A stretch of 64,000 nt of DNA. Source: Acidimicrobiia bacterium. Its GTDB lineage: Bacteria; Actinomycetota; Acidimicrobiia; Spongiisociales; Spongiisociaceae. The notes beneath the pieces are model-generated. The model was not told the DNA's origin. It did no database searches and was given only the letters and a program-made list of their open reading frames with translations. Positions 34,568 through 48,552 of this stretch are shown here, one piece after another. The translations under genes and the position numbers were made by a program. The stretch spans positions 13,349 to 77,348 of the forward strand of contig VXRE01000049.1 of assembly GCA_009838635.1 (NCBI GenBank), given 5' to 3'. The stretch's first letter is position 1; every line of letters starts with the position of its first letter.

Positions 34568-35531
34568 CTATTCGGAGGTGTCCGCGGCGCCTCCTGTGAC
34601 GCCCTGACGGCGCGGCGGCGTGACCTCGAAGGTGAAGAGGTCGGACCGGCTGTAGTGACCGGCCACGTCCAGGTCGAACTTGCCCCTGATCGTGTCGGTC
34701 AGGTCGATCTCGGCGGTCAGGATCGCCTCGCTCCCGTAGTGGGGCCCGGCGAGGACCTCACCGAACGGATCGACGATGCAACTCCCACCCGGGGTGATCA
34801 CACCGTCGGGCGCTTCGCCGAATACGGACCGGTAGTCGGCGGGATAGTCCGCACGGGTCGCGTACTGGTTGGCCGAGAGCACGTAGCACCGGCCCTCCAC
34901 CGCGATGTGCCGCATGGAAGCGGTCCAACTGTCCCTGGCGTCGGCGGTCGGAGCACACCACACCTGGATGTCCTGCCGGTAGAGGGAGTAACGGAGCAGC
35001 GGCATGTAGTTCTCCCAGCAGACGGCGGCGCCCAGGTTGCCGTGCCGGGTCGGGTGGACCTGGAGCGTCGATCCGTCTCCGAACCCCCAGATCAGCCGTT
35101 CGGAACCGGTCGGCATCACCTTGCGGTGCTTGGCGTACATGCCCTCCACCGGCGCGAAGAACAGCACCGAGCAGTACAGGGTGCTCCCGCCGCGCTCGAT
35201 CACCCCGATCACGATGTCCATCGCCAGATCGGATGACAATTCGACAAGCCGGTCGGTGACCGGACCGGGCACGTCGATCGCCGACTGCCAGTAGCGGAGG
35301 AACATATCCCGGCCCGCCTCGCTCCGCGACCCGACCACCGCCCCGAAGTCCAGGCCCCGCGGGTACGCGGAGAAGAAGGCCTCGGGGAACACCGCCAAGT
35401 CCGCGCCCTCCGACCGGGTGCGGGTAGCCAGATCGGCTGTCTTCCGATAGCGTGGCCTCCGGATCGAATCCAACCGGCGCCGCCTGCACCACCGCGGCGA
35501 CGAACTTGGATCCAGCCGGGCGTTCAGCCAT
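34568..35531 (-). pseudogene. Nitrilase/cyanide-hydratase family carbon-nitrogen hydrolase, interrupted by a +1/-1 frameshift near codon 30
   Basis: The ATG at 35531 gives MAERPAGSKFVAAVVQAAPVGFDPEATLSEDS. After 35440-35450 the homology continues in another frame: RKTADLATRTRSEGADLAVFPEAFF...CWENYMPLL, carrying the Glu, Lys and Cys of the catalytic triad. This could be a sequencing error or a genuine pseudogene. Confidence 0.55.
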
Positions 35532-35624
35532 CGGAGCAATCGTTATGATCGGCGACCGACATTTCCGAGAGGCTAATACCGGCCGGCCGCAGGCTCGATC
35601 GGAGAGAACTGCCAGGAGGTTCCC

Positions 35625-38575: not shown

Positions 38576-39592
38576 TCAGAATGCCTTAGGTCGCCAGGAG
38601 GACAACCGGGACTCGACCGCCTTGGTGATGGTGATCATGATCCCTCCGATCACCATCAGTAGCAGGGCCATGGCGAACAGCCGGTCGGTGTGGTAGGCAG
38701 CCCGGGCGTCCCGGATCACGAAGCCCAGTCCGGGCACCCCGATCAGGAACTCGGCCACGATCACCGCGATCAGACCACGTTGCACGGCGATGCGGAGACC
38801 GGTGGCCAGGAACGGGACGGCGCCGGGCAGGAGGATCTTCAGGAACATGTGCCGGTCGCGTGCGACGAGCAGCCCCACCGTGCCGAACAGCAGTACCAAA
38901 CCCTGAATGAGGCTCAGCCATCCCGCAGCCGTACCCAGGAAGGTGACGACGAGGAGGACGGCCCCGACCCATTCCTCGACCACGCCCTTGCCCGACCTCA
39001 GGTTGAAGGCATAGGAGATCTCGTTGTACTCCTTCATCAACTCGTGCACCCCCGCCGCGGTGGAGAAGGCGATCAGGACCGAGCAGGCCACCACCACGCT
39101 GGCGATCACGAACCTGGAGAAGGGAATCTCGACCCCGGCCGCCAGGAAGTTGTCTGCGATGCCGAACCAGATGACCATGATCGGGACGAAGGCCACACGT
39201 GGGACCGAATAGACGGCTGCCAGGTAGGGATCGAGCGCCACCCGGAACACCCGGTACCGGCCGATCAGGAAACCAAGGGTCACCCCCACGATGAACGAGA
39301 GCACCATGCCGATCAGCAGGGCTCCCATGGACTTCATGAGCAGTACCGGGAAGCTCCCCTCGATGTAGGGAAGCACCTGCTCGGCGCCGAGGAGCCTCCA
39401 CAACTCGGCGAGCGTCAGGCTCGGCTGCGAGTACCACTCGGGCTTCCGGGCGCCGAACACCTCCCAGAGCCCCAGGAAGACCACGACTCCGGTCAGTTGA
39501 AGGATCCTCACCCGGCTGATCCGGAACGGGCTACGGGTCTCCCCGCCAGTCTGGACGGCGCCGTCTCCGCTGTCTGTCGAAGTCTCGGCCAT
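38576..39592 (-). CDS. ABC transporter permease, NitT/TauT family
   Basis: It has 6 TM helices and the EAA-like loop. The start is at MAETSTD, since the ORF-track upstream extension is out-of-frame read-through. Its ATG overlaps the stop of the upstream permease (ATGA). Confidence 0.8.
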   Translation of the reverse strand: MAETSTDSGDGAVQTGGETRSPFRISRVRILQLTGVVVFLGLWEVFGARKPEWYSQPSLTLAELWRLLGAEQVLPYIEGSFPVLLMKSMGALLIGMVLSFIVGVTLGFLIGRYRVFRVALDPYLAAVYSVPRVAFVPIMVIWFGIADNFLAAGVEIPFSRFVIASVVVACSVLIAFSTAAGVHELMKEYNEISYAFNLRSGKGVVEEWVGAVLLVVTFLGTAAGWLSLIQGLVLLFGTVGLLVARDRHMFLKILLPGAVPFLATGLRIAVQRGLIAVIVAEFLIGVPGLGFVIRDARAAYHTDRLFAMALLLMVIGGIMITITKAVESRLSSWRPKAF

Positions 39593-40437
39593 CACGTGGC
39601 CTCCATGGTGCTCCACGGGGTCACCCAACGCTCGAGCAGCCGCAGGCCGAGGTTGATCGACACTCCCACCGCCATGACGGTCAGCATGCCCGCGAAGGTC
39701 GTGTGCATCCGGTATTCGTTGGTCTGGTTGGCTATCAGCCCCCCTATCCCGTTGGCCTCGAGGAAGAAGCCGGCCAGCACCACGCCGACCATCCCGTGCA
39801 GGAGGCCCAGGCGGAGCCCGGTGATGATGTAGGGCGCGGTAGCCGGCGCGATGATCTTGGTGAGCATCATGCCCTCCGGGATCGAGTATGACCTGGCCAC
39901 GTCCACGTACTCGGCGTTCGTCACCTTGATGCCGTCGCGAACGGTGAAGAAGACCTCGAAGAAGCTGAAGAGGATCACTATCAGCACCTTGGCGTTGAAC
40001 TGGAAGCCCAGCCAGAGGGCGATGATCGGCAGCAGGGCGATCTTGGGCGTCATGAACACACCCACGAACACCGGCTCGACGGTGTTGTCGATCGAGCGGT
40101 ACCGTCCCATGACGAAGCCCAGAATGATTCCGGCCACGGCCGAAATCGCCAGGGCGGTGAACATGATGGCCAGGTCGGACCGCCACGCCTTCCACAGGTC
40201 GCCGCTGACGGTCATCTCCCATAGCGCATCCCAGGTCCTGGTCACCGAGGCGAAGGTGACGGTGCTGGTGCGCCTGCCGAAGACCTCCCAGCCGGTGAGG
40301 ATGACGGCGAGAGTCAGGATCCGGATCAGCCAACTCGATTGGAACACCGCCAGGAAGCGCAGCAGGGGGCGGCTCCACCCGGCAGCCAGGATCGCGGAAC
40401 CCTGCTCCCGGTGGGTCAGCGTGTCGACTGCGGCCAT
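39592..40437 (-). CDS. ABC transporter permease, NitT/TauT family (second permease)
   Basis: It is hydrophobic with 6 TM. The start is at MAAVDTLTHREQ, with GGGGAG 9 nt upstream. Confidence 0.8.
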   Translation of the reverse strand: MAAVDTLTHREQGSAILAAGWSRPLLRFLAVFQSSWLIRILTLAVILTGWEVFGRRTSTVTFASVTRTWDALWEMTVSGDLWKAWRSDLAIMFTALAISAVAGIILGFVMGRYRSIDNTVEPVFVGVFMTPKIALLPIIALWLGFQFNAKVLIVILFSFFEVFFTVRDGIKVTNAEYVDVARSYSIPEGMMLTKIIAPATAPYIITGLRLGLLHGMVGVVLAGFFLEANGIGGLIANQTNEYRMHTTFAGMLTVMAVGVSINLGLRLLERWVTPWSTMEAT

Positions 40438-40636
40438 ATCCAATAGCTCCCCATCTGATGACCCCGGGAGTGGCACCGGCCAGCCCGGCAACCGGTAACA
40501 GGCTGCCTTCAGGACGGCTCGAACCCTTACGGAAACCTTAGTCCCACGCTCCGCAGCCGTATGGACACCTTGTGGGCCTGCCGCATCCCGGAGGAAACCG
40601 GTAGGCCCACAGGTTCATTTCGTCGTGTCGTCTGCT

Positions 40637-42778
40637 CTATCGCCGCCCGAGAATGTCCAGTGCCTGGTCTTGGAACTCGAAGGTGACCAGTTCCTCGACC
40701 GTGTAGGCCCGGTCGACCGCCTCGAACGCGAGCGATGTGTCCAGGGTGGTCTGCATCAGGTCGTAGTCGAGGGAACCGTTGACCGGCCACATGTCCAACT
40801 CATGGATGAGCCCGTCGTAATCGATCGAGGCAGCTTCCGCGGTAAGGCGCTCGTTCACCGACATGGCGTACTCGATCCACTGCTGCTTGTCCTCCTGCGC
40901 CCAACGCGCCGACTTCAACGACGCGATGTTGAACGCCAGCGCCATGTCAGGATTGGCCTCCACCCAGGCCCTCTCGGCATACCACACCGAAGAGATCTGG
41001 GGGGCCGCCTCCCAACCCGCACAAAGCATGTTGTAAGCGCCCACGCCCTCATTCAGAGTGAGCTGGGTGAGACGCCAGGTAGCCGAGATGCCGCCGACAA
41101 CCTGACCCGACGAGATCGCCTGGGTCGCCTCACCCGTATGGGCCAGCCGCACCAGCTGCACATCGTCCACGGTCATGCCCACATCCGCCAGACACTTCTG
41201 GAGAGTCTGGCCCGTGATCTGGTTAAGGCTCTGAGTCGCCGCCACGGGCTGGCCCCGCAACTCCTCCATCGAGCTGATCGGCGCCTTGGCCGCGATGATG
41301 AACGAGTTCTTCTGATCGTCACCACCGAAGGCGACGAAGTCCGAACCCGCCGAGACGGCATTCGCCATACCCGCCAGGGAGAGCTGGCCCACGTCCACCT
41401 CACCGGCGATCGTGGCCGCCACCAGCGGATCGGAGTCCAGCAGGCGGAACTCCACATCGAGACCGAAGTCATCCCGCAAGAAGTCCATCGTCCGGAACGC
41501 ACCCGTCAACGAAGCGTTCGGGAAGCCTGAACTACCCACCACCACCGACTGGCCCTCGATCCGGGACCGGATGTCGGCGATCACCGCATCCGGATCCATC
41601 ATCGCATCGTCTGCCATGGAGATGTCGGGATTGCGCTCGGCTGTCCCGAGGATCTCAAGTGCCTTGTCCTGGAACTCGAAGGTGACCAGTTCCTCCACGG
41701 TGTACTCACGGTCGACCGCCTCGAACTCGAAGGAGGTATCCAACGTGGTCTGCAAGAGGTCGTATTCGAGGGAGCCATTGACCGGCCACATGTCCAGCTC
41801 GCCCAAGAGGCTGTCGTAGTCGAGCGACGCAGCCTCCGGGGTAAGGCGCTCGTTCACCGACATGGCGTACTCGATCCAGCGCTGCTTGTCCTCCTGCGCC
41901 CAACGCGCCGACTTCAACGACGCGATGTTGAACGCCAGCGCCATGTCAGGATTGGCCTCCACCCAGGCCCTCTCGGCATACCACACCGAAGAGATCTGGG
42001 GGGCCGCCTCCCAACCCGCACAAAGCATGTTGTAAGCGCCCACGCCCTCATTCAGAGTGAGCTGGGTGAGACGCCAGGTAGCCGAGATGCCGCCGACAAC
42101 CTGACCCGACGAGATCGCCTGGGTCGCCTCACCCGTATGGGCCAGCCGCACCAGCTGCACATCGTCCACGGTCATGCCCACATCCGCCAGACACTTCTGG
42201 AGAGTCTGGCCCGTGATCTGGTTAAGGCTCTGAGTCGCCGCCACGGGCTGGCCCCGCAACTCCTCCATCGAGCTGATCGGCGCCTTGGCCGCGATGATGA
42301 ACGAGTTCTTCTGATCGTCACCACCGAAGGCGACGAAGTCCGAACCCGCCGAGACGGCATTCGCCATACCCGCCAGGGAGAGCTGGCCCACGTCCACCTC
42401 ACCGGCGATCGTGGCCGCCACCAGCGGATCGGAGTCCAGCAGGCGGAACTCCACATCGAGACCGAAGTCATCCCGCAAGAAGTCCATCGTCCGGAACGCA
42501 CCCGTCAACGAAGCGTTCGGGAAGCCCGAGCTACCCACCACCACCGACTGGCCCTCGATCCGGGACCGGATGTCGGCGATCGTCTCGGCCTCATCCATCA
42601 TCCCATCGTCGGCCGGAGCCGTCTCGGTGGGCGTGTCGTCGGCCGGGGCCTGGGTGGCCTGGGTGGTGGCCTGCGTTGCGGGGGCTTGGGTCGTGGCGGC
42701 GGGTTCCTCATCCGCGCCGCAAGCCGCCACAAGCAAGGCAAAGCCCAACAGCAGTGCCATTAGCCGCATGTGTCTCAT
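40637..42778 (-). CDS. ABC transporter substrate-binding lipoprotein (NMT1/SsuA/TauA-like) containing two tandem substrate-binding domains
   Basis: The signal peptide has a lipobox (LLVAACG) and a TTQAP-rich linker. Two SBP modules of about 330 aa follow: the first 250 residues are identical between copies and the last 80 are about 75% identical. Confidence 0.75.
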   Translation of the reverse strand: MRHMRLMALLLGFALLVAACGADEEPAATTQAPATQATTQATQAPADDTPTETAPADDGMMDEAETIADIRSRIEGQSVVVGSSGFPNASLTGAFRTMDFLRDDFGLDVEFRLLDSDPLVAATIAGEVDVGQLSLAGMANAVSAGSDFVAFGGDDQKNSFIIAAKAPISSMEELRGQPVAATQSLNQITGQTLQKCLADVGMTVDDVQLVRLAHTGEATQAISSGQVVGGISATWRLTQLTLNEGVGAYNMLCAGWEAAPQISSVWYAERAWVEANPDMALAFNIASLKSARWAQEDKQRWIEYAMSVNERLTPEAASLDYDSLLGELDMWPVNGSLEYDLLQTTLDTSFEFEAVDREYTVEELVTFEFQDKALEILGTAERNPDISMADDAMMDPDAVIADIRSRIEGQSVVVGSSGFPNASLTGAFRTMDFLRDDFGLDVEFRLLDSDPLVAATIAGEVDVGQLSLAGMANAVSAGSDFVAFGGDDQKNSFIIAAKAPISSMEELRGQPVAATQSLNQITGQTLQKCLADVGMTVDDVQLVRLAHTGEATQAISSGQVVGGISATWRLTQLTLNEGVGAYNMLCAGWEAAPQISSVWYAERAWVEANPDMALAFNIASLKSARWAQEDKQQWIEYAMSVNERLTAEAASIDYDGLIHELDMWPVNGSLDYDLMQTTLDTSLAFEAVDRAYTVEELVTFEFQDQALDILGRR
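40640..42640. repeat. Direct tandem duplication with a 999-bp period (two units) inside the SBP gene. About 750 bp of each unit is >99% identical at the nucleotide level, and the 3'-proximal 240 bp (gene orientation) is diverged.
   Basis: Read directly: 40861-41620 equals 41861-42620 except for about 4 substitutions. Sub-ORFs in the track are duplicated accordingly (for example 41173-41502 versus 42172-42501). Confidence 0.85.
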
Positions 42779-43082: not shown

Positions 43083-44051
43083 TCACGATGCCGAGAACGA
43101 TGGGAGGACCTCGGCCCCCAGTTGCTCGATGCCTTCCTCGAAGGCGTCCATTCGCTCCCGTAGATCGAGTACCACCTCATCCACCCCGCGGGCTTCGAGC
43201 TGGTGGAGTTCCTCGATCACATCATCAGCCGTGCCTGCGATCAGCGCTCCCCGCAGGTCCGCCGCCGTGTCGAACGGTCCGTCCGGACGCCAGGCCGGCT
43301 TCCTGCGGGACTCCTCGAGGATTCCCTCTACGTTGACCTTGGCCAATGCGCGCTCCCGGCTCCGGTCGAGGGAGACCAGCGGGACGATGGCGATCCGCAT
43401 CGTCTTGCCGGCCGCGCCGGCCTCCTCCTCGAGCCTTGCCGACAGGCGGTCGAACACCCTTAGCGGGCAGCGGCCGGGGAACCAACCGTCAGTGAAGCGG
43501 ACCGCTCGACGGATGGCCGCCAGGCTGGAACCGCAGTAGAGAAGCGTCAGATCCCGGGGAGGGGCCGGATCGAGGGTCAGGTCGTCGAAGCTGATCAGGG
43601 TGCCGCGATGGGAGGCGCGGGGATGCGCCGTGGCACGTAGGACGGTCACCATCTCCTCGAAGAGGGCAATGCGGTCGTCGACCGAGAGCCCTGCCAGGCG
43701 GAAGGCGTTCGGCTGACCCCCCAAGCCCACACCGAGCGCCATCCGGCCGCGGGCGAGGTGGGCGAGGGATCCCACCAGCTGGGCGAGCACCACGGGCGGG
43801 CGAATCGGGGTCAGGGTCGCCATGCCCACGGTCAGTTCGGTGGTTGCCGCCACGGCGCTCATGGCGATGAAAGGATCCACGAAGTGGTGGCTGGGGTTCT
43901 CGAACGACACGCCACCCGTGAAGCCCAGCTGGTCCCGGAAGTAGACGCTGGAGAACCCGAGTTCCTGGAGGCGCGGCCCGATCGCGAACACCCGGTCCCA
44001 GGTCGAGTGCGGGCCGAAGTGGGGCACGAGTAGGCCGAAGGAGAGGCTCAT
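43083..44051 (-). CDS. LLM-class flavin/F420-dependent oxidoreductase (copy 2)
   Basis: It begins MSLSFGLLVPHFGPHST, is 322 aa, and has a luciferase-like TIM-barrel profile. Confidence 0.7.
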   Translation of the reverse strand: MSLSFGLLVPHFGPHSTWDRVFAIGPRLQELGFSSVYFRDQLGFTGGVSFENPSHHFVDPFIAMSAVAATTELTVGMATLTPIRPPVVLAQLVGSLAHLARGRMALGVGLGGQPNAFRLAGLSVDDRIALFEEMVTVLRATAHPRASHRGTLISFDDLTLDPAPPRDLTLLYCGSSLAAIRRAVRFTDGWFPGRCPLRVFDRLSARLEEEAGAAGKTMRIAIVPLVSLDRSRERALAKVNVEGILEESRRKPAWRPDGPFDTAADLRGALIAGTADDVIEELHQLEARGVDEVVLDLRERMDAFEEGIEQLGAEVLPSFSAS

Positions 44052-44077
44052 CGCTGCCGGGAATTCAACGCTGCCGG

Positions 44078-45292
44078 GTGTTCATCGGTCCGGTCATCGT
44101 ATACGATCAGCCCGTGCCTGCCGGTGCTGAAGGACCCGTCCGGGTGGCCGTTGTGCAGGCGGCCCCGGTGTTTCTGGATCGGGCCGCGTCCGTGCGCAAG
44201 GCGTGCGGCCTGATCGATGAGGCCGGAGCCGCCGGTGCTCGCCTGGTCGCATTCGGTGAGAGCTTCCTTCCGGGACACCCGATCTGGTTCCACGCCCTGC
44301 CCCCCACGGCCGGCCGTTCGAGGGAACTCGCCACAGCCATGGTGGAGAACGCCCTGACGGTTCCGGGCCCGGAGAGCGATCTGCTGTGCGAGGCCGCCCG
44401 CCGCGCCGGAGCGATGGTCGTGATCGGTCTCGTCGAGCGTCCCGACCCCGGGGTGAGCGTGGTATTCGATAGCCAGATGGTGCTGTCCCCGGATGGTGCG
44501 ATGCTCGGCGTGCGCCGGAAGCTGGTTCCGGCAGTGGGTGAGCGGGTCTTCTTCCACCCGGGCGGCGGGGAATCGATCCGCGTGTTCGACTCGCCGTGGG
44601 GGCCGGTGAGCGTGCTGGCGGGAGGGGAGAACTCCAACCCATTGCTCACCTACGCCATGCGCACTCTGAGCGCCCGGATCCACGTGGCTCTCTGGCCCCC
44701 GCATTTCCACGCTCCCGGCGTGATGCAGAATGTGGTGTCCATAACCGGGCGGGCCGTGGCCTACCAGAACACGGCCCACGTGCTCTCGGTGGCCGCCGCC
44801 TCGGATGCGGAGGCCGTGGAGCGGGTGGCGCCGGACGCCGCGCATCGGGCCAACCTCATGACGATGACCGAGGAGCCCGGCTCGATGATCTACGCGCCGG
44901 GTGGCAGGATCCTGGCCGGTCCCCAGCAGGGCGAGGGAATCCTCTACGCCGACATCGACCCGGACGCCGGAACCTGGGCGCAACTGGTCAACCGCCAGTA
45001 CGACCGACCCGACCTCCTGCGGCTTTCCTGGGGTGGGCAGGAAGGCACCCTTCCGGCGGAACCTGGCGGTCGCGTCGAGGGGGACCCCGAGCAAGACTCC
45101 CCCACGGACGAAGACCTGGCGGCCCGCGCCCGGCTCCTGATCCGGGAGAGGTTCGGCGACGCGCTCGATCCCGACGACTCCGAGGGGCTGGTTCCCTACG
45201 TGGTGCAGATACTGCGCCGGTCCGGAAGGCTGGCCGAGCGCGTCCCGGACTCCACCGATCCGCGGACCGCCCTCTACGCGGGCGAGCGTTGA
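44078..45292 (+). CDS. Nitrilase-superfamily (carbon-nitrogen hydrolase) homologue lacking the catalytic cysteine, with a 100-aa acidic C-terminal extension
   Basis: VRVAVVQAAPVFLD, the Glu motif LVAFGESF, and the Lys motif RRKLVP are present. The Cys motif position reads VLAGGENSNPLL where the neighbouring paralogue has AVCWENYMPLL. Confidence 0.7.
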   Translation: MFIGPVIVYDQPVPAGAEGPVRVAVVQAAPVFLDRAASVRKACGLIDEAGAAGARLVAFGESFLPGHPIWFHALPPTAGRSRELATAMVENALTVPGPESDLLCEAARRAGAMVVIGLVERPDPGVSVVFDSQMVLSPDGAMLGVRRKLVPAVGERVFFHPGGGESIRVFDSPWGPVSVLAGGENSNPLLTYAMRTLSARIHVALWPPHFHAPGVMQNVVSITGRAVAYQNTAHVLSVAAASDAEAVERVAPDAAHRANLMTMTEEPGSMIYAPGGRILAGPQQGEGILYADIDPDAGTWAQLVNRQYDRPDLLRLSWGGQEGTLPAEPGGRVEGDPEQDSPTDEDLAARARLLIRERFGDALDPDDSEGLVPYVVQILRRSGRLAERVPDSTDPRTALYAGER

Positions 45293-46749
45293 GCGATAGC
45301 ATCGCGCTCGCCTCCATCACCGAGGTCGCAAGTCGTATCTCGGCCGGGGAGGTCTCTCCCGTCGATCTGGTCTCCGGAACGCTCGACCGCATCCGGACCC
45401 TGGACCCAGTCCTGCGGGCCTACGTCACCGTGTTCGAAGAGGAAGCGCTGGCCGGTGCCAGGGTCGCCGCGGACGAGATCGCGGGCGGGAACCACCGCGG
45501 GCCGCTGCACGGCATCCCGGTGGCGGTGAAGGACAACGTTGCGGTGGCGGGCCACCCCACGACCAACGGATCGGTGCTCTGGGCGGATCACAAGACCGAC
45601 TTCGATGCGGAGGTCGTCACCCGCCTCCGGCGAGCCGGGGCCATCCTCCTCGGGAAGAACAACATGCACGAGTGGGGAATGGGGGGTACCTGCAAGGACA
45701 TGCACTTCGGCACGGTACGCAACCCCTGGGATCCGGCCCGCATACCGGGCGGCTCGAGCGGAGGCTCCGCCGCCGCCGTGAGCGCCGGGATGGCCTGGGC
45801 CGCGGTCGGCACCGACGGGTGGGGCTCGATCCGGACGCCGGCATCGTATTGCGGTGTGGTCGGACTGATGCCCACCCACGGGCTGGCCAGCCGCTTCGGG
45901 GAGTTGCCTCCCACCAGCTCCTGGCATCACACCATCGGCCCCATCACGAGGACGGTCGGGGATGCCGCAACCCTGCTCGATGTCATGGCCGGACACGATC
46001 CCAAGGACCCGACGTCCATCCATTCCGGCTTCGAGGGTTCCTACCGCGACGGCTTGGCAAGGGGAACGAGTCGCCTGAGGGTGGGCTTGCCCGGTTCCTA
46101 TTTCTTCGACGACGCCCTCGCTGAGGTGGAGGAGATCGTACGTGACGCGGCCCGGGTCCTCGAAGACCTGGGAGCGGAGGTCGAGGAGGTGGACCTGTCG
46201 GCCTTCTACGAGATTCCCCTGGCGCTGGCGGCCGCCCAGCACGAGTCGCAGTCGCTTCTCCTTCCGCACGCCCTCGCCCGTCCGGAAGGCTTCGCCACGC
46301 CCGAAATCCGCTACAGGATCCTGGCCGGGGAGTTTGTGTCGGCAGCCGATCACCGCAGGGGTATGCAGGTGCGCAACGAGATCCGCGCCGGGGTTGCCCG
46401 CGTATTCGAGGCAGTGGATGTGGTGCTCACCCCGTGCAACTCCACCGTGGCCTTCCCCATCGACGCCCGCCATGTCGGGATCGGTGGGGGAAGGTGTGTG
46501 GACCTGGACCAGCCGGGAGCGCAGAGCAGGCTCACCACGCGGCTCACCCTGCCCTGGAACATGGCCGGTGTGCCGGCGGTATCCATCCCGTCCGGCCGCT
46601 ACATCGACGGCCTACCGGTGGGCCTGCAGCTGTCGGCGCGCCGGCTGCACGAGTCCCTGCTGCTCCGTGTCGCGGCAGCCTACGAAGCGGCCGCCGGGGG
46701 TTACCGGCCGCCTCCGCTACCTGGAGTCGGTGAGAACCCGGTTGTCTGA
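45289..46749 (+). CDS. Amidase-signature family amidase (GatA-like Ser-cisSer-Lys hydrolase)
   Basis: GIPVAVKDN and GGSSGGSAAAVSAG motifs are present. A TTG start overlaps the nitrilase-like stop (TTGA), and the ORF-track 5' extension is rejected. Confidence 0.8.
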   Translation: MSDSIALASITEVASRISAGEVSPVDLVSGTLDRIRTLDPVLRAYVTVFEEEALAGARVAADEIAGGNHRGPLHGIPVAVKDNVAVAGHPTTNGSVLWADHKTDFDAEVVTRLRRAGAILLGKNNMHEWGMGGTCKDMHFGTVRNPWDPARIPGGSSGGSAAAVSAGMAWAAVGTDGWGSIRTPASYCGVVGLMPTHGLASRFGELPPTSSWHHTIGPITRTVGDAATLLDVMAGHDPKDPTSIHSGFEGSYRDGLARGTSRLRVGLPGSYFFDDALAEVEEIVRDAARVLEDLGAEVEEVDLSAFYEIPLALAAAQHESQSLLLPHALARPEGFATPEIRYRILAGEFVSAADHRRGMQVRNEIRAGVARVFEAVDVVLTPCNSTVAFPIDARHVGIGGGRCVDLDQPGAQSRLTTRLTLPWNMAGVPAVSIPSGRYIDGLPVGLQLSARRLHESLLLRVAAAYEAAAGGYRPPPLPGVGENPVV

Positions 46750-46780
46750 TGGCGTGTCCGGCACACGGAAGCCGAGCGTG

Positions 46781-47728
46781 ATGGCCGGCGTACCTCTCCG
46801 GGTCTGCCTGTTCAGCGGGGCATCGTCGCTGCCGATACGCATCGCCGACCACCTGGGCCTGCTCTCGGAAGCCGGGCTGGCGGCCGAACTCCATCTGACC
46901 CGAGGCTCCAGAGAGTTGGTGGAGGGTCTGGCGGCCGGTCGCTACGACGTGGTGCATGCCGCCCCGGACAACTTCATCGAGTGGAGCGACCGGACCGGAG
47001 CGGACATCGTGTCCTGGATAGGCGGCACCAGCGGACCCTTGCATCTGATCGGTTCGCCCGAGCTGGCGGGATTGGCGGACCTGGCCGGGCGCGGGATAGC
47101 GGTGGACTCTCCCGACTCGGGGTTTGTCTCGATCCTGATGAAGATCGTGCGGGCGGGAGGATTGGCCGCCGAGGACGTCTCCCTCGTACCGCTCGGCAGC
47201 ACTCAGCTGCGTTACGAGGCGCTGATGGCAGGCCGGACAGCAGCCACCATGCTCGCCCTACCGTGGTCGGCCATGGCCCTGGAGGCCGGTTTCAGCCTCT
47301 TGGGCGACCGCGACCAGGTCCTGCCGGGGATGCAGGGCTCCTCCGGAGCATCCCTCCGGACCTGGCTGGCAGCCCACCCCGACACCGCGGACTCCTACCT
47401 GAAGGCGTTGTGCGCCGCCATCACCTGGCTCAACCACCCCGCGAACCTCGAGGATGCCAACCGGTACATCTGCGAGACATACGGGACGAGTCCCGCCCTG
47501 GCTGACGCGGTCCACCGGTCGATCATGGACCCACGCACAGGTTGGTCGCCCTCGGCGTTCATCGATCCGGCCGGCATGGACATGGTGTGCCGCCTGCGCT
47601 CCGAGAACGGTCGACCACCGGACCGGCCGGCGACCTCCTACTACACCCTGGAACCGTACCGCCGGGTGTTCGGGTTCGGCTTGGGACCTTGTGCGGGTGA
47701 GCCTCCGGAAGATGTGGAGGGTGCCTAG
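46781..47728 (+). CDS. NMT1/THI5-like (SsuA/TauA-fold) protein with no signal peptide, so a predicted cytoplasmic binding-protein-like component
   Basis: Starting from MAGVPLRVCLFSGASSLP, the sequence reads like a periplasmic-binding-protein type II fold but has no leader or lipobox. Confidence 0.5.
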   Translation: MAGVPLRVCLFSGASSLPIRIADHLGLLSEAGLAAELHLTRGSRELVEGLAAGRYDVVHAAPDNFIEWSDRTGADIVSWIGGTSGPLHLIGSPELAGLADLAGRGIAVDSPDSGFVSILMKIVRAGGLAAEDVSLVPLGSTQLRYEALMAGRTAATMLALPWSAMALEAGFSLLGDRDQVLPGMQGSSGASLRTWLAAHPDTADSYLKALCAAITWLNHPANLEDANRYICETYGTSPALADAVHRSIMDPRTGWSPSAFIDPAGMDMVCRLRSENGRPPDRPATSYYTLEPYRRVFGFGLGPCAGEPPEDVEGA

Positions 47729-47820: not shown

Positions 47821-48117
47821 ATGACCGATCCCGGTCCCTTTCCACCTGAACGATCGGTGGCTGCCGCAGAGTTCAAGGCGCATTGCCTGCGCCTGATGGA
47901 TGACGTCCAGGAGACCGGAACAGCGATCATCGTGACGAAGTACCGCCGGCCCGTTGTACGGATCAGTCCGGTCCGCGAGGACCGCCCTCCGCTGGTCGGA
48001 TCATGTGCGGGGCAGTTGAGGATCATCGCCGACATCGATGTCGACCCGGCGATTCCGCCGGACCATTGGGACATGATCGCTGATCCCGGCCAAACGGAGA
48101 CCGGCGATCCGGTCTGA
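47821..48117 (+). CDS. Type II antitoxin (Phd/YefM-like) partnering the downstream PIN toxin
   Basis: It is 98 aa. The N-terminus AAEFKAHCLRLMDDVQETGTAIIVTKYRRPVVRISP matches the Phd/YefM antitoxin fold. It lies 15 nt upstream of the PIN gene. Confidence 0.55.
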   Translation: MTDPGPFPPERSVAAAEFKAHCLRLMDDVQETGTAIIVTKYRRPVVRISPVREDRPPLVGSCAGQLRIIADIDVDPAIPPDHWDMIADPGQTETGDPV

Positions 48118-48132
48118 CGGCGGAACATCCGG

Positions 48133-48552
48133 GTGAACCTACTCCTGGACACCAACGTCCTGCTCCGGCTTGCCGTCGCCAGCGAATCCGTCCCCGACTC
48201 CTTCAAGAGAGAGGTGGAGTCAGGTCTCGCTCAGGGAAGCGTCGCCGTCTCCGCGATCACTTTCGTGGAGACCACGCGCCTGCACCACCACGGGCGGATC
48301 GATCTGGGATGCCATCCCGGGGTCTGGCGTAGCGAACGGCTTCGATCAGGACTACGCGAAGTCCCGATCGGAGGTGAGATCGCCGTCGAGTCGGTATTGC
48401 TGATGAACGCCGGCTTCCACAATGACCTTGCAGATCAACTGATCGTTGCCACGGCGATGCTGGGAGGGATGCGCCTCGCGACGATGGACGGGAATATCAT
48501 CGCTTGGGCGCAACGGACCCGCCTAGTGGCGCTGCTCGACCCGAGCGCCTAG
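48133..48552 (+). CDS. vapC: PIN-domain toxin (VapC-like ribonuclease)
   Basis: MNLLLDTNVLLRL is the hallmark PIN N-terminus with the first catalytic Asp. Later acidic residues are present (..DLADQLIVATA..), and length is 139 aa. Confidence 0.75.
   Translation: MNLLLDTNVLLRLAVASESVPDSFKREVESGLAQGSVAVSAITFVETTRLHHHGRIDLGCHPGVWRSERLRSGLREVPIGGEIAVESVLLMNAGFHNDLADQLIVATAMLGGMRLATMDGNIIAWAQRTRLVALLDPSA

Follow-up and report, generated by a model that had tools for sequence, protein, structure and literature searches.

What does a nitrilase homologue do once its catalytic cysteine has been replaced, and what ties it to the intact amidase encoded directly behind it? The question is raised by positions 44078-47728 of a 64,000-nucleotide (nt) stretch of DNA from an Acidimicrobiia contig (the window, in whose numbering all positions are given unless a related locus is named), which had been picked out in a first-pass annotation and was followed up here. 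Open reading frame (ORF) listing and Pfam scans gave three co-directional genes on the plus strand, for two of which we use working labels: nitG for the Cys-less nitrilase-like gene, and sbpC for a gene encoding a cytoplasmic protein with the fold of a substrate-binding protein (SBP).

44078..45292, + strand: nitG, Cys-less nitrilase-superfamily gene, 404 amino acids (aa); PF00795 CN_hydrolase, 6e-33
45289..46749, + strand: amidase-signature enzyme, GatA/AtzE-like, 486 aa; PF01425, 1.8e-112 (377 bits)
46781..47728, + strand: sbpC, cytoplasmic NMT1/SsuA-fold protein, 315 aa, no signal peptide; weak NMT1_2/NMT1/SsuA matches

Sequence comparison across related loci shows that nitG has been conserved as the partner of the intact amidase next to it, and the link between the two appears to run via the C-terminal tail of the nitG protein.

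By both sequence and fold nitG fits the nitrilase superfamily, and the catalytic Cys in the C-[WA]-E motif is not present. Searches with phmmer against nitrilases in the PDB gave matches down to 1e-38, and an AlphaFold2 (AF2) model with a predicted local distance difference test (pLDDT) score of 82 found its best fold matches in the filament nitrilases 8uxu, CynD and 6zby (Foldseek, 8uxu, 5e-29). The protein scored 134 bits against the Nit6803 equivalog TIGR04048, below the cut-off of 502.6. Its start was annotated as GTG 44078; an in-frame GTG at 44114 is possible instead and agrees with the N-termini of relatives. In HMMER alignments to the three solved nitrilases 6zby, 8uxu and 8p4i, Gly182 of the stretch 'VLAGGENSNPL' lies opposite the catalytic Cys of CAE/CWE, while Glu61 (FGES), Lys148 (RRKL) and Glu184 are retained. 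The replacement of Cys by Gly and the retention of the Glu and Lys motifs, both of which had been read from the window alone in the first-pass annotation, were thus confirmed. The codon concerned is the following.

44621..44623, + strand: GGA codon of Gly182, at the catalytic-Cys position by alignment; Gly or Ala in all 104 closest homologues

Two events that could have undone this assignment had been named beforehand, a sequencing error at the Cys codon and an alignment that brings a Cys from elsewhere in the protein to the nucleophile site. A single-base error is ruled out because GGA is two substitutions away from TGT or TGC, and no alignment places another Cys there. The 120 best homologues fall into two groups: L-x-[GA]-G-E-N is found without exception in the 104 closest (50-98% identity and for the most part full length), with Gly usual and Ala rare at position 182, and L-M-C-G-E-N ('CGENSNPLLT') in the next 16 (43-48% identity). 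Homologues of the Gly/Ala type are found in Acidimicrobiia, Limnocylindrales, Solirubrobacterales and Gemmatimonadota, and a neighbour-joining tree unites the Gly-type proteins in a single clade, sister to the Cys-bearing CGEN clade. An alignment of 33 diverse members shows no variation at Glu61, Lys148 or Glu184, which are also kept in all listed homologues. nitG has only two Cys residues, C43 and C104, neither of which occupies a conserved column of the family alignment, and no conserved replacement Cys, Ser or Thr was found there at or next to position 182. With a ratio of non-synonymous to synonymous substitution rates (dN/dS) of 0.10-0.13 for the core against four relatives, nitG is a conserved protein under purifying selection and not a decaying gene. 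We read the Cys loss as permanent.

Near-invariant changes set the Gly clade apart from its Cys-bearing sister clade, namely P60G, T152A, C182G, S208P/F209H and A223T. P60G adjoins the catalytic Glu, T152A follows the Lys motif, and His209 is a gained, invariant residue. As far as these conserved positions tell, the pocket of nitG is remodelled, not decayed. Gly at the Cys site is also seen in the independent nitrilase homologues P0164, P0174, P0213, P0239, P0252 and P0265 (for example GGLAGWENYMPL and GGLIGGEHYLPL), several of which have lost the catalytic Lys as well. The Cys has been lost more than once in this nitrilase branch. A single Gly-type sequence, P0034, reads ALCGGEN, with a Cys one residue ahead of the usual nucleophile position.

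Behind the core, nitG carries a C-terminal tail, which had been described in the first-pass annotation as acidic and about 100 aa long. The tail is real, but it comprises 87 aa, of which the acidic linker makes up 24; the remaining 63-aa module is mildly acidic only, with 13 acidic and 10 basic residues.

45029..45100, + strand: acidic disordered linker, residues 318-341; pLDDT <50 at 320-339; dN/dS 0.4-1.0; variable in length and sequence
45101..45289, + strand: two-helix C-terminal module, GatC/AtzG-like, residues 342-404, proposed amidase-binding tether; supported by motif, helices and profile match

The module follows the motif R.LI..RFGD.L...D.E.LVPYV...L..S..L.....DPR and was modelled as two helices at residues 344-359 and 365-388 (AF2, pLDDT 85-97, and 85-92 in the full-length model), which reappeared at positions 6-21 and 27-50 when the isolated tail was modelled. 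Its dN/dS of 0.17-0.27 indicates purifying selection, compared with 0.4-1.0 in the linker. The Cys-type sister clade has no conserved tail module.

In three Acidimicrobiia metagenome-assembled genomes (MAGs; loci L011, L012 and L013) the gene is split. The nitrilase-like ORF ends inside the linker (...ATG TGA or ...CTG TGA), and a GTG within that stop (GTGA) opens an ORF of 73-79 aa that matches the conserved module exactly and runs up to the amidase start. The split lies at 10034-11199 of L011 and at the same place in L012 and L013, and the GTGA junction is conserved in all three despite differing surrounding bases. Both products are represented in the public protein set, the truncated core as P0026 (7 member sequences) and the small ORF of L013 as P0269. 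The tail is therefore an autonomous module, with core and tail separable by gene fission. Another apparent split gene (P0268, locus L043) was discarded on account of frameshifts in several genes of that assembly. In L043 (ENA ERZ28669063 ctg21380) the SBP, luciferase-like and nitrilase-like genes are all fragmented and the sequence looks indel-rich; its split tail ORF was not counted.

What the tail does is indicated by its distribution. We mapped nitG, the amidase, sbpC and the divergent luciferase-like gene described below on 43 related loci from genomes and metagenomes. An amidase gene lies directly after 27 of 27 distinct tail-bearing Gly-type genes, across phyla and mostly with overlapping stop and start codons; two of these genes were missed by the motif pattern and added by eye (L008 with 'LVPYL' and L021 with 'MIPFV'). 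None of the five tail-less Gly/Ala-type genes (P0100/L023, P0082/L017, P0074/L042, P0096/L041 and P0102/L040) has an amidase; four of the five run directly into sbpC, and the remaining one has another CN_hydrolase behind it. The tail-less genes sit at four separate places within the tail-bearing clade of a rough neighbour-joining tree, on visibly longer branches, and P0082 and P0074 keep the first helix as a remnant. In none of the 32 informative loci does either the tail or the amidase occur without the other.

The amidase itself is intact. Its TTG start at 45289 overlaps the TGA stop of nitG (cgTTGAgc), and the Ser-cisSer-Lys triad, Lys81/Ser156/Ser180 by alignment to GatA, is present and invariant in 16 orthologues, so that the stop/start overlap with an intact amidase reported in the first-pass annotation stands. 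Its best solved relatives are GatA chains, and chain A of AtzE (6c62) also matches (4.5e-51). The protein falls below the curated cut-offs of both families, scoring 296.3 bits against AtzE TIGR02715 (cut-off 425.75) and 317.2 bits against GatA TIGR00132 (cut-off 481.1). No natural nitG-amidase fusion was found among 150 representatives. One sequence of 607 aa, P0087, just has an N-terminal extension of unassigned kind, probably from a miscalled start.

The form and position of the module recall the GatC/AtzG-type partners of such amidases, a link that had not been anticipated in the first-pass annotation. Like them, it is a short helix-loop-helix peptide, encoded directly upstream of an amidase and translationally coupled to it. 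AtzG is itself non-catalytic and makes an obligate complex with AtzE, which is insoluble without it, and the AtzG-AtzE pair is derived from GatC-GatA (PMC6219798). Profile-profile comparison with hhalign placed tail positions 24-62 on positions 19-57 of five solved GatC proteins, in helix-loop-helix register (P=6e-4, probability 29%). Small ORFs found upstream of related amidases aligned with GatC over 9-58 / 5-54 (P=6.4e-5, probability 64%), the tail aligned with these small ORFs over 24-66 / 23-65 (P=0.022, probability 2%), and the tail against GatC and small ORFs together gave 17-66 / 14-63 (P=4.6e-4, probability 33%). The three pairwise alignments between tail, GatC and small ORFs are mutually consistent in register. 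The merged-profile score of 22.3 was reached by 0 of 300 column-shuffled tails (8.1 +/- 1.7, maximum 15.5), and the reversed tail scored 8.0. The tail thus seems to bear a weak but register-consistent similarity to GatC.

The small ORFs used in this comparison precede amidases that are 37-44% identical to that of the window, its closest plasmid relatives, in Aminobacter, Corynebacterium, two Rhodococcus, Burkholderia and Streptomyces. They encode 60-74 aa, overlap the start codons of the amidases, and are called 'hypothetical' or left unannotated.

L044, 2299-2508: small ORF before amidase
L045, 1326-1508: small ORF before amidase
L046, 1323-1505: small ORF before amidase
L047, 1287-1511: small ORF before amidase
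L048, 939-1157: small ORF before amidase
L050, about 1000-1181: unannotated small ORF beside nitrile hydratase genes, Rhodococcus pyridinivorans plasmid p_4-4_B

GatC-like partners of such amidases may be widely overlooked, which matters for expression in biocatalysis because plasmid-borne amidases may be insoluble without their partner.

The third gene, sbpC, behaves differently from the first two. Its fold was matched by PF13379 (36.6 bits, cut-off 24.7) and PF09084 (25.4 bits, cut-off 20.5), and with 39.6 bits against a cut-off of 163.5 it is not a member of the SsuA_fam subfamily. No export signal, either signal peptide or lipobox, was found in 17 orthologues, whose N-terminus runs straight into the first conserved strand. 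The first-pass annotation had placed an NMT1/SsuA-fold protein lacking a signal peptide after the amidase, which is correct, and had described it as translationally coupled, which is not, as sbpC starts 31 nt after the amidase stop with no overlap. Nor is the three-gene unit that it proposed fixed elsewhere, since six related loci (L008, L009, L011, L012, L018 and L027) have no sbpC behind the amidase. It follows a Cys-type nitrilase in 7 of 7 cases in Limnocylindrales-type clusters, and the tail-less nitG elsewhere. sbpC is a facultative neighbour and not an obligate member of the unit. About 100 columns of its alignment are identical in at least 16 of the 17 orthologues and none of them is Cys; with no invariant Cys of its own, sbpC was rejected as the source of a Cys acting in trans.

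The wider neighbourhood bears on the substrate. Upstream of nitG, on the opposite strand, lie the following genes.

43083..44051, - strand: luciferase-like (F420-type LLM) oxidoreductase, divergent from nitG; PF00296, 4e-37, TIGR03619-like
38576..42778, - strand: ATP-binding cassette (ABC) importer with two permeases and a tandem-duplicated SsuA/NMT1-type lipoprotein SBP (40637-42778); BPD_transp_1 and NMT1 domains

The LLM gene is directly upstream of nitG and divergent from it in every related locus that has an upstream flank, and a second LLM gene and the importer are situated behind it. The LLM start (44051) and the nitG GTG at 44078 are separated by 26 nt (44052-44077), or by 62 nt if nitG starts at GTG 44114, so that two divergent promoters must overlap coding sequence or each other. 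The importer is arranged in the same way in L001-L004 and L020-L023. Its SBP (40637-42778, minus strand) begins with the lipoprotein signal MRHMRLMALLLGFALLVAAC and, at 713 aa, is a head-to-tail doubling of the whole SsuA/NMT1 module with a period of 999 nt and nearly identical halves; the doubled form also occurs in L001, L002 and L020 (701-719 aa), and Limnocylindrales-type clusters have a single SBP of 372-383 aa.

Downstream of the three genes were found a Phd/PIN toxin-antitoxin pair, a PhyH dioxygenase, a xanthine/uracil-family permease and a molybdenum hydroxylase. The Phd/YefM-like antitoxin and PIN-domain toxin occupy 47821-48552 (plus strand), between sbpC and the PhyH-family gene, and the corresponding spot of the syntenic relatives L001-L003 holds no Phd- or PIN-annotated ORFs. 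A second nitrilase homologue with an intact CWEN motif lies 9 kb upstream at 34568-35539 (minus strand), adjoining an alpha/beta hydrolase gene. It is the only other nitrilase in the 64 kb, is 27-31% identical to the Gly-type and Cys-type clades, and has no counterpart in L001-L003. As a distant CWEN-type protein that is not syntenic in relatives, it was rejected as an active partner of nitG.

The wider cluster is common to several phyla. It comprises LLM oxidoreductases, the SsuA/NMT1 importer, a molybdenum hydroxylase (FAD and 2Fe-2S subunits included) and MFS and GntR proteins; relatives add a bicupin, a hydrolase of the isochorismatase family, an M24 protein resembling creatinase and a Cys-bearing nitrilase. 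Its carriers are sponge-associated Acidimicrobiia and MAGs of Limnocylindrales (Chloroflexota), Solirubrobacterales and Gemmatimonadota; one Acidimicrobiia MAG contig is 98% identical to the window at the protein level, and the nearest relatives include MAGs labelled Candidatus Spongiisociaceae. None of the cluster neighbours compared with NCBIfam (LLM, cupin, isochorismatase, M24 and nitC) reached an equivalog. The content of the cluster suggests that it serves to break down an N-heterocycle or ureide taken up from outside.

Combining these lines of evidence, we favour a model in which the tail tethers a Cys-less, ligand-binding nitrilase-fold subunit to an active amidase, and we give the model as a whole about an even chance of being right. 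The two-helix module of about 60 residues, a GatC/AtzG-type peptide behind a flexible acidic linker, would bind the amidase made from the overlapping downstream gene and clamp it as AtzG clamps AtzE and GatC clamps GatA, so that the amidase would be both stabilised and tethered to a nitrilase-fold dimer or oligomer. The amidase would perform C-N hydrolysis, and ligand binding would fall to the Cys-less domain, a subunit that would take up an amide or ureide intermediate or pass it on. Together they may work in a catabolic cluster for an imported N-heterocycle-like compound. We infer the physical binding of tail and amidase, the non-catalytic role of the pocket and the substrate class alike, and place greater trust in the partnership of tail and amidase than in the view of the pocket as non-catalytic.

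Several observations weigh against this model. The tail DNA abuts the amidase gene and both can go in one deletion, so that the number of joint losses overstates their weight as evidence. Copies that lack both tail and amidase are retained, with Glu/Lys/Glu intact and coupled to sbpC, and the nitrilase-like core must then have an amidase-independent role, which the model leaves unspecified. The pairing of an inactive scaffold with an active amidase, as put forward in the first-pass annotation, accordingly holds as a partnership in all 27 tail-bearing cases and fails as a pure amidase scaffold. The likeness to GatC is also limited, since hhalign probabilities for the tail against GatC profiles were only 29-33%, Pfam GatC (PF02686) gave no match to the tail, alone or in 30 family members, a PDB search with the tail profile returned chance-level matches only, and no Foldseek match to the AF2 model of the tail by itself came below E=2, in a test that says little about a peptide of two helices. 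A GatC profile searched against the PDB fails to recover AtzG too, which places sequence methods near their limit for such peptides. Finally, residual or new catalysis would account just as well for the invariance of Glu/Lys/Glu and for the gained, likewise invariant His209.

This last point opens the way to a possible, if somewhat doubtful, alternative, in which nitG is still an enzyme, with a non-canonical nucleophile as the first-pass annotation had also considered. Its remodelled pocket (Gly60, Ala152, Gly182/183, His209 and Glu-Lys-Glu) would use water or a group of the substrate as nucleophile on an activated C-N species, and the amide product would pass to the tethered amidase in a two-step route like that of nitrile hydratase and amidase. 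Invariance of the three polar residues across the 33 diverse members and all listed homologues, near-invariant clade-specific substitutions including His209, a core dN/dS of about 0.1, the retention of tail-less copies without amidase, and the occurrence of a related amidase next to nitrile hydratase genes in Rhodococcus pyridinivorans would all suit it, but no conserved Cys, Ser or Thr takes over at or beside position 182, and several of the other, independent Cys-less homologues lose Lys too, like ordinary pseudoenzymes. To our knowledge, no nitrilase-superfamily enzyme works without the Cys. A bolder form, which we consider rather unlikely, has the conserved pocket carrying out cysteine-independent chemistry on an unstable C-N intermediate, with the GatC-like tether handing the product to the amidase; if true, this would be a C-N hydrolase machine with two active sites, in which a GatCA-type module is joined to a nitrilase-fold oligomer, and the nitrilase superfamily would gain a new type of reaction.

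Two further explanations dispense with the tether. nitG might be a non-catalytic subunit of a mixed oligomer with a Cys-bearing paralogue, tuning activity or specificity as in plant NIT4, with the adjacency of the amidase being just operonic. Gly-type and Cys-type genes do occur together in at least ten distinct loci (L004, L015, L016, L021, L022, L030 and L032-L035), the two clades are mutually closest, and the best structural matches are filament-forming nitrilases. However, the clusters of the window and of the other sponge-type Acidimicrobiia loci hold no Cys-type copy, at the level of the cluster none is present in L001-3, L007-13, L018, L020 or L023, the tail-less Gly-type gene of L023 is the sole nitrilase homologue at its locus, and the tail, its split-gene form and the amidase link are left unexplained, which makes the mixed oligomer clearly improbable. 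Nor do we think it at all probable that the tail serves the self-assembly of the nitrilase-fold oligomer, has no connection with the amidase and is lost together with it by DNA adjacency alone. C-terminal extensions and regions matter for helical filament assembly of branch-1 nitrilases, filament structures are the top fold matches of nitG, and a single deletion can take both tail and amidase. Against this stand the want of a conserved tail in the Cys-type sister clade, the disordered, fast-evolving linker that parts the tail from the core, the ability of the tail to exist as a separate ORF, its resemblance to the GatC type in the correct register, and the strict coincidence of tail and amidase in the 32 informative loci. 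An artefact, whether the Cys codon was misread in sequencing or assembly or the gene is a pseudogene in decay, is refuted and keeps practically no probability, given the two changes needed at GGA, the Gly or Ala in about 100 independent sequences of several phyla and the strong purifying selection; no support for it was found, the frameshift-riddled assembly of L043 being separate from the window and having no bearing on it.

As far as the evidence goes, nitG and its relatives would be the first Cys-less clade among branch-1 nitrilases that is conserved and under selection and whose partner can be identified, and they mark an uncharacterised catabolic cluster for a nitrogen compound. A full-text literature search found no description of nitrilase-superfamily pseudoenzymes or of a Cys-less clade, and no account of the nitG-amidase pairing was found in the literature searched.

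Among known systems, a close parallel is AtzE-AtzG of Pseudomonas sp. ADP (6c62), 1-carboxybiuret hydrolase and its partner, in which a GatA-derived amidase is likewise coupled to a small, helical, non-catalytic peptide encoded upstream and takes part in the catabolism of a nitrogen-rich compound. The order of core, small ORF and amidase in L011-L013 reproduces that of atzG-atzE and gatC-gatA. Unlike AtzG, for which the complex is established, the module of the window would bind its amidase by analogy and usually forms the C-terminal part of a fusion with a Cys-less nitrilase-fold protein of 320 aa, and no atzD-, atzH- or atzF-like genes were seen in the cluster of the window. In the GatCAB transamidosome, GatC wraps GatA and bridges to GatB, and the tail would similarly link the amidase to a second protein body; however, the system in the window has neither GatB nor a tRNA context, and its tail is missed by the Pfam GatC model. 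With the branch-1 filament nitrilases and cyanide dihydratases (8uxu, 6zby, 8p4i and 3wuy) nitG shares the fold (template modelling score about 0.86-0.88 on the target) at 29-34% identity, but differs in having Gly for Cys, Gly for the neighbouring Trp/Ala, changed residues at the Pro before the catalytic Glu and at the Thr after the Lys motif, and an extra linker and tail. The nitrile hydratase-amidase operons of Rhodococcus also set a nitrile- or amide-handling protein beside an amidase of the same branch (that of L050 is 39% identical and has a GatC-like small ORF ahead of it), though the partner in the window is a nitrilase fold without its nucleophile, not a metal-dependent hydratase. In the NIT4A/NIT4B heteromeric complexes of grasses, a nitrilase paralogue that is inactive alone works only in the complex, and both subunits keep the Cys. 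Unlike that case, the evidence presented here indicates an amidase partner of a different fold, and the cluster of the window is without a Cys-type paralogue. The parts, then, are of known kinds (nitrilase fold, GatA-type amidase and GatC/AtzG-type partner) and what is new is their combination: a conserved nitrilase homologue devoid of the Cys carries a GatC-like peptide as a fusion, and its split and tail-less derivatives go along with the presence or absence of the amidase. It would extend the GatC/AtzG principle, by which a small peptide renders a GatA-type amidase functional, in that a peptide fused to a second body would become a tether between two different hydrolase folds.

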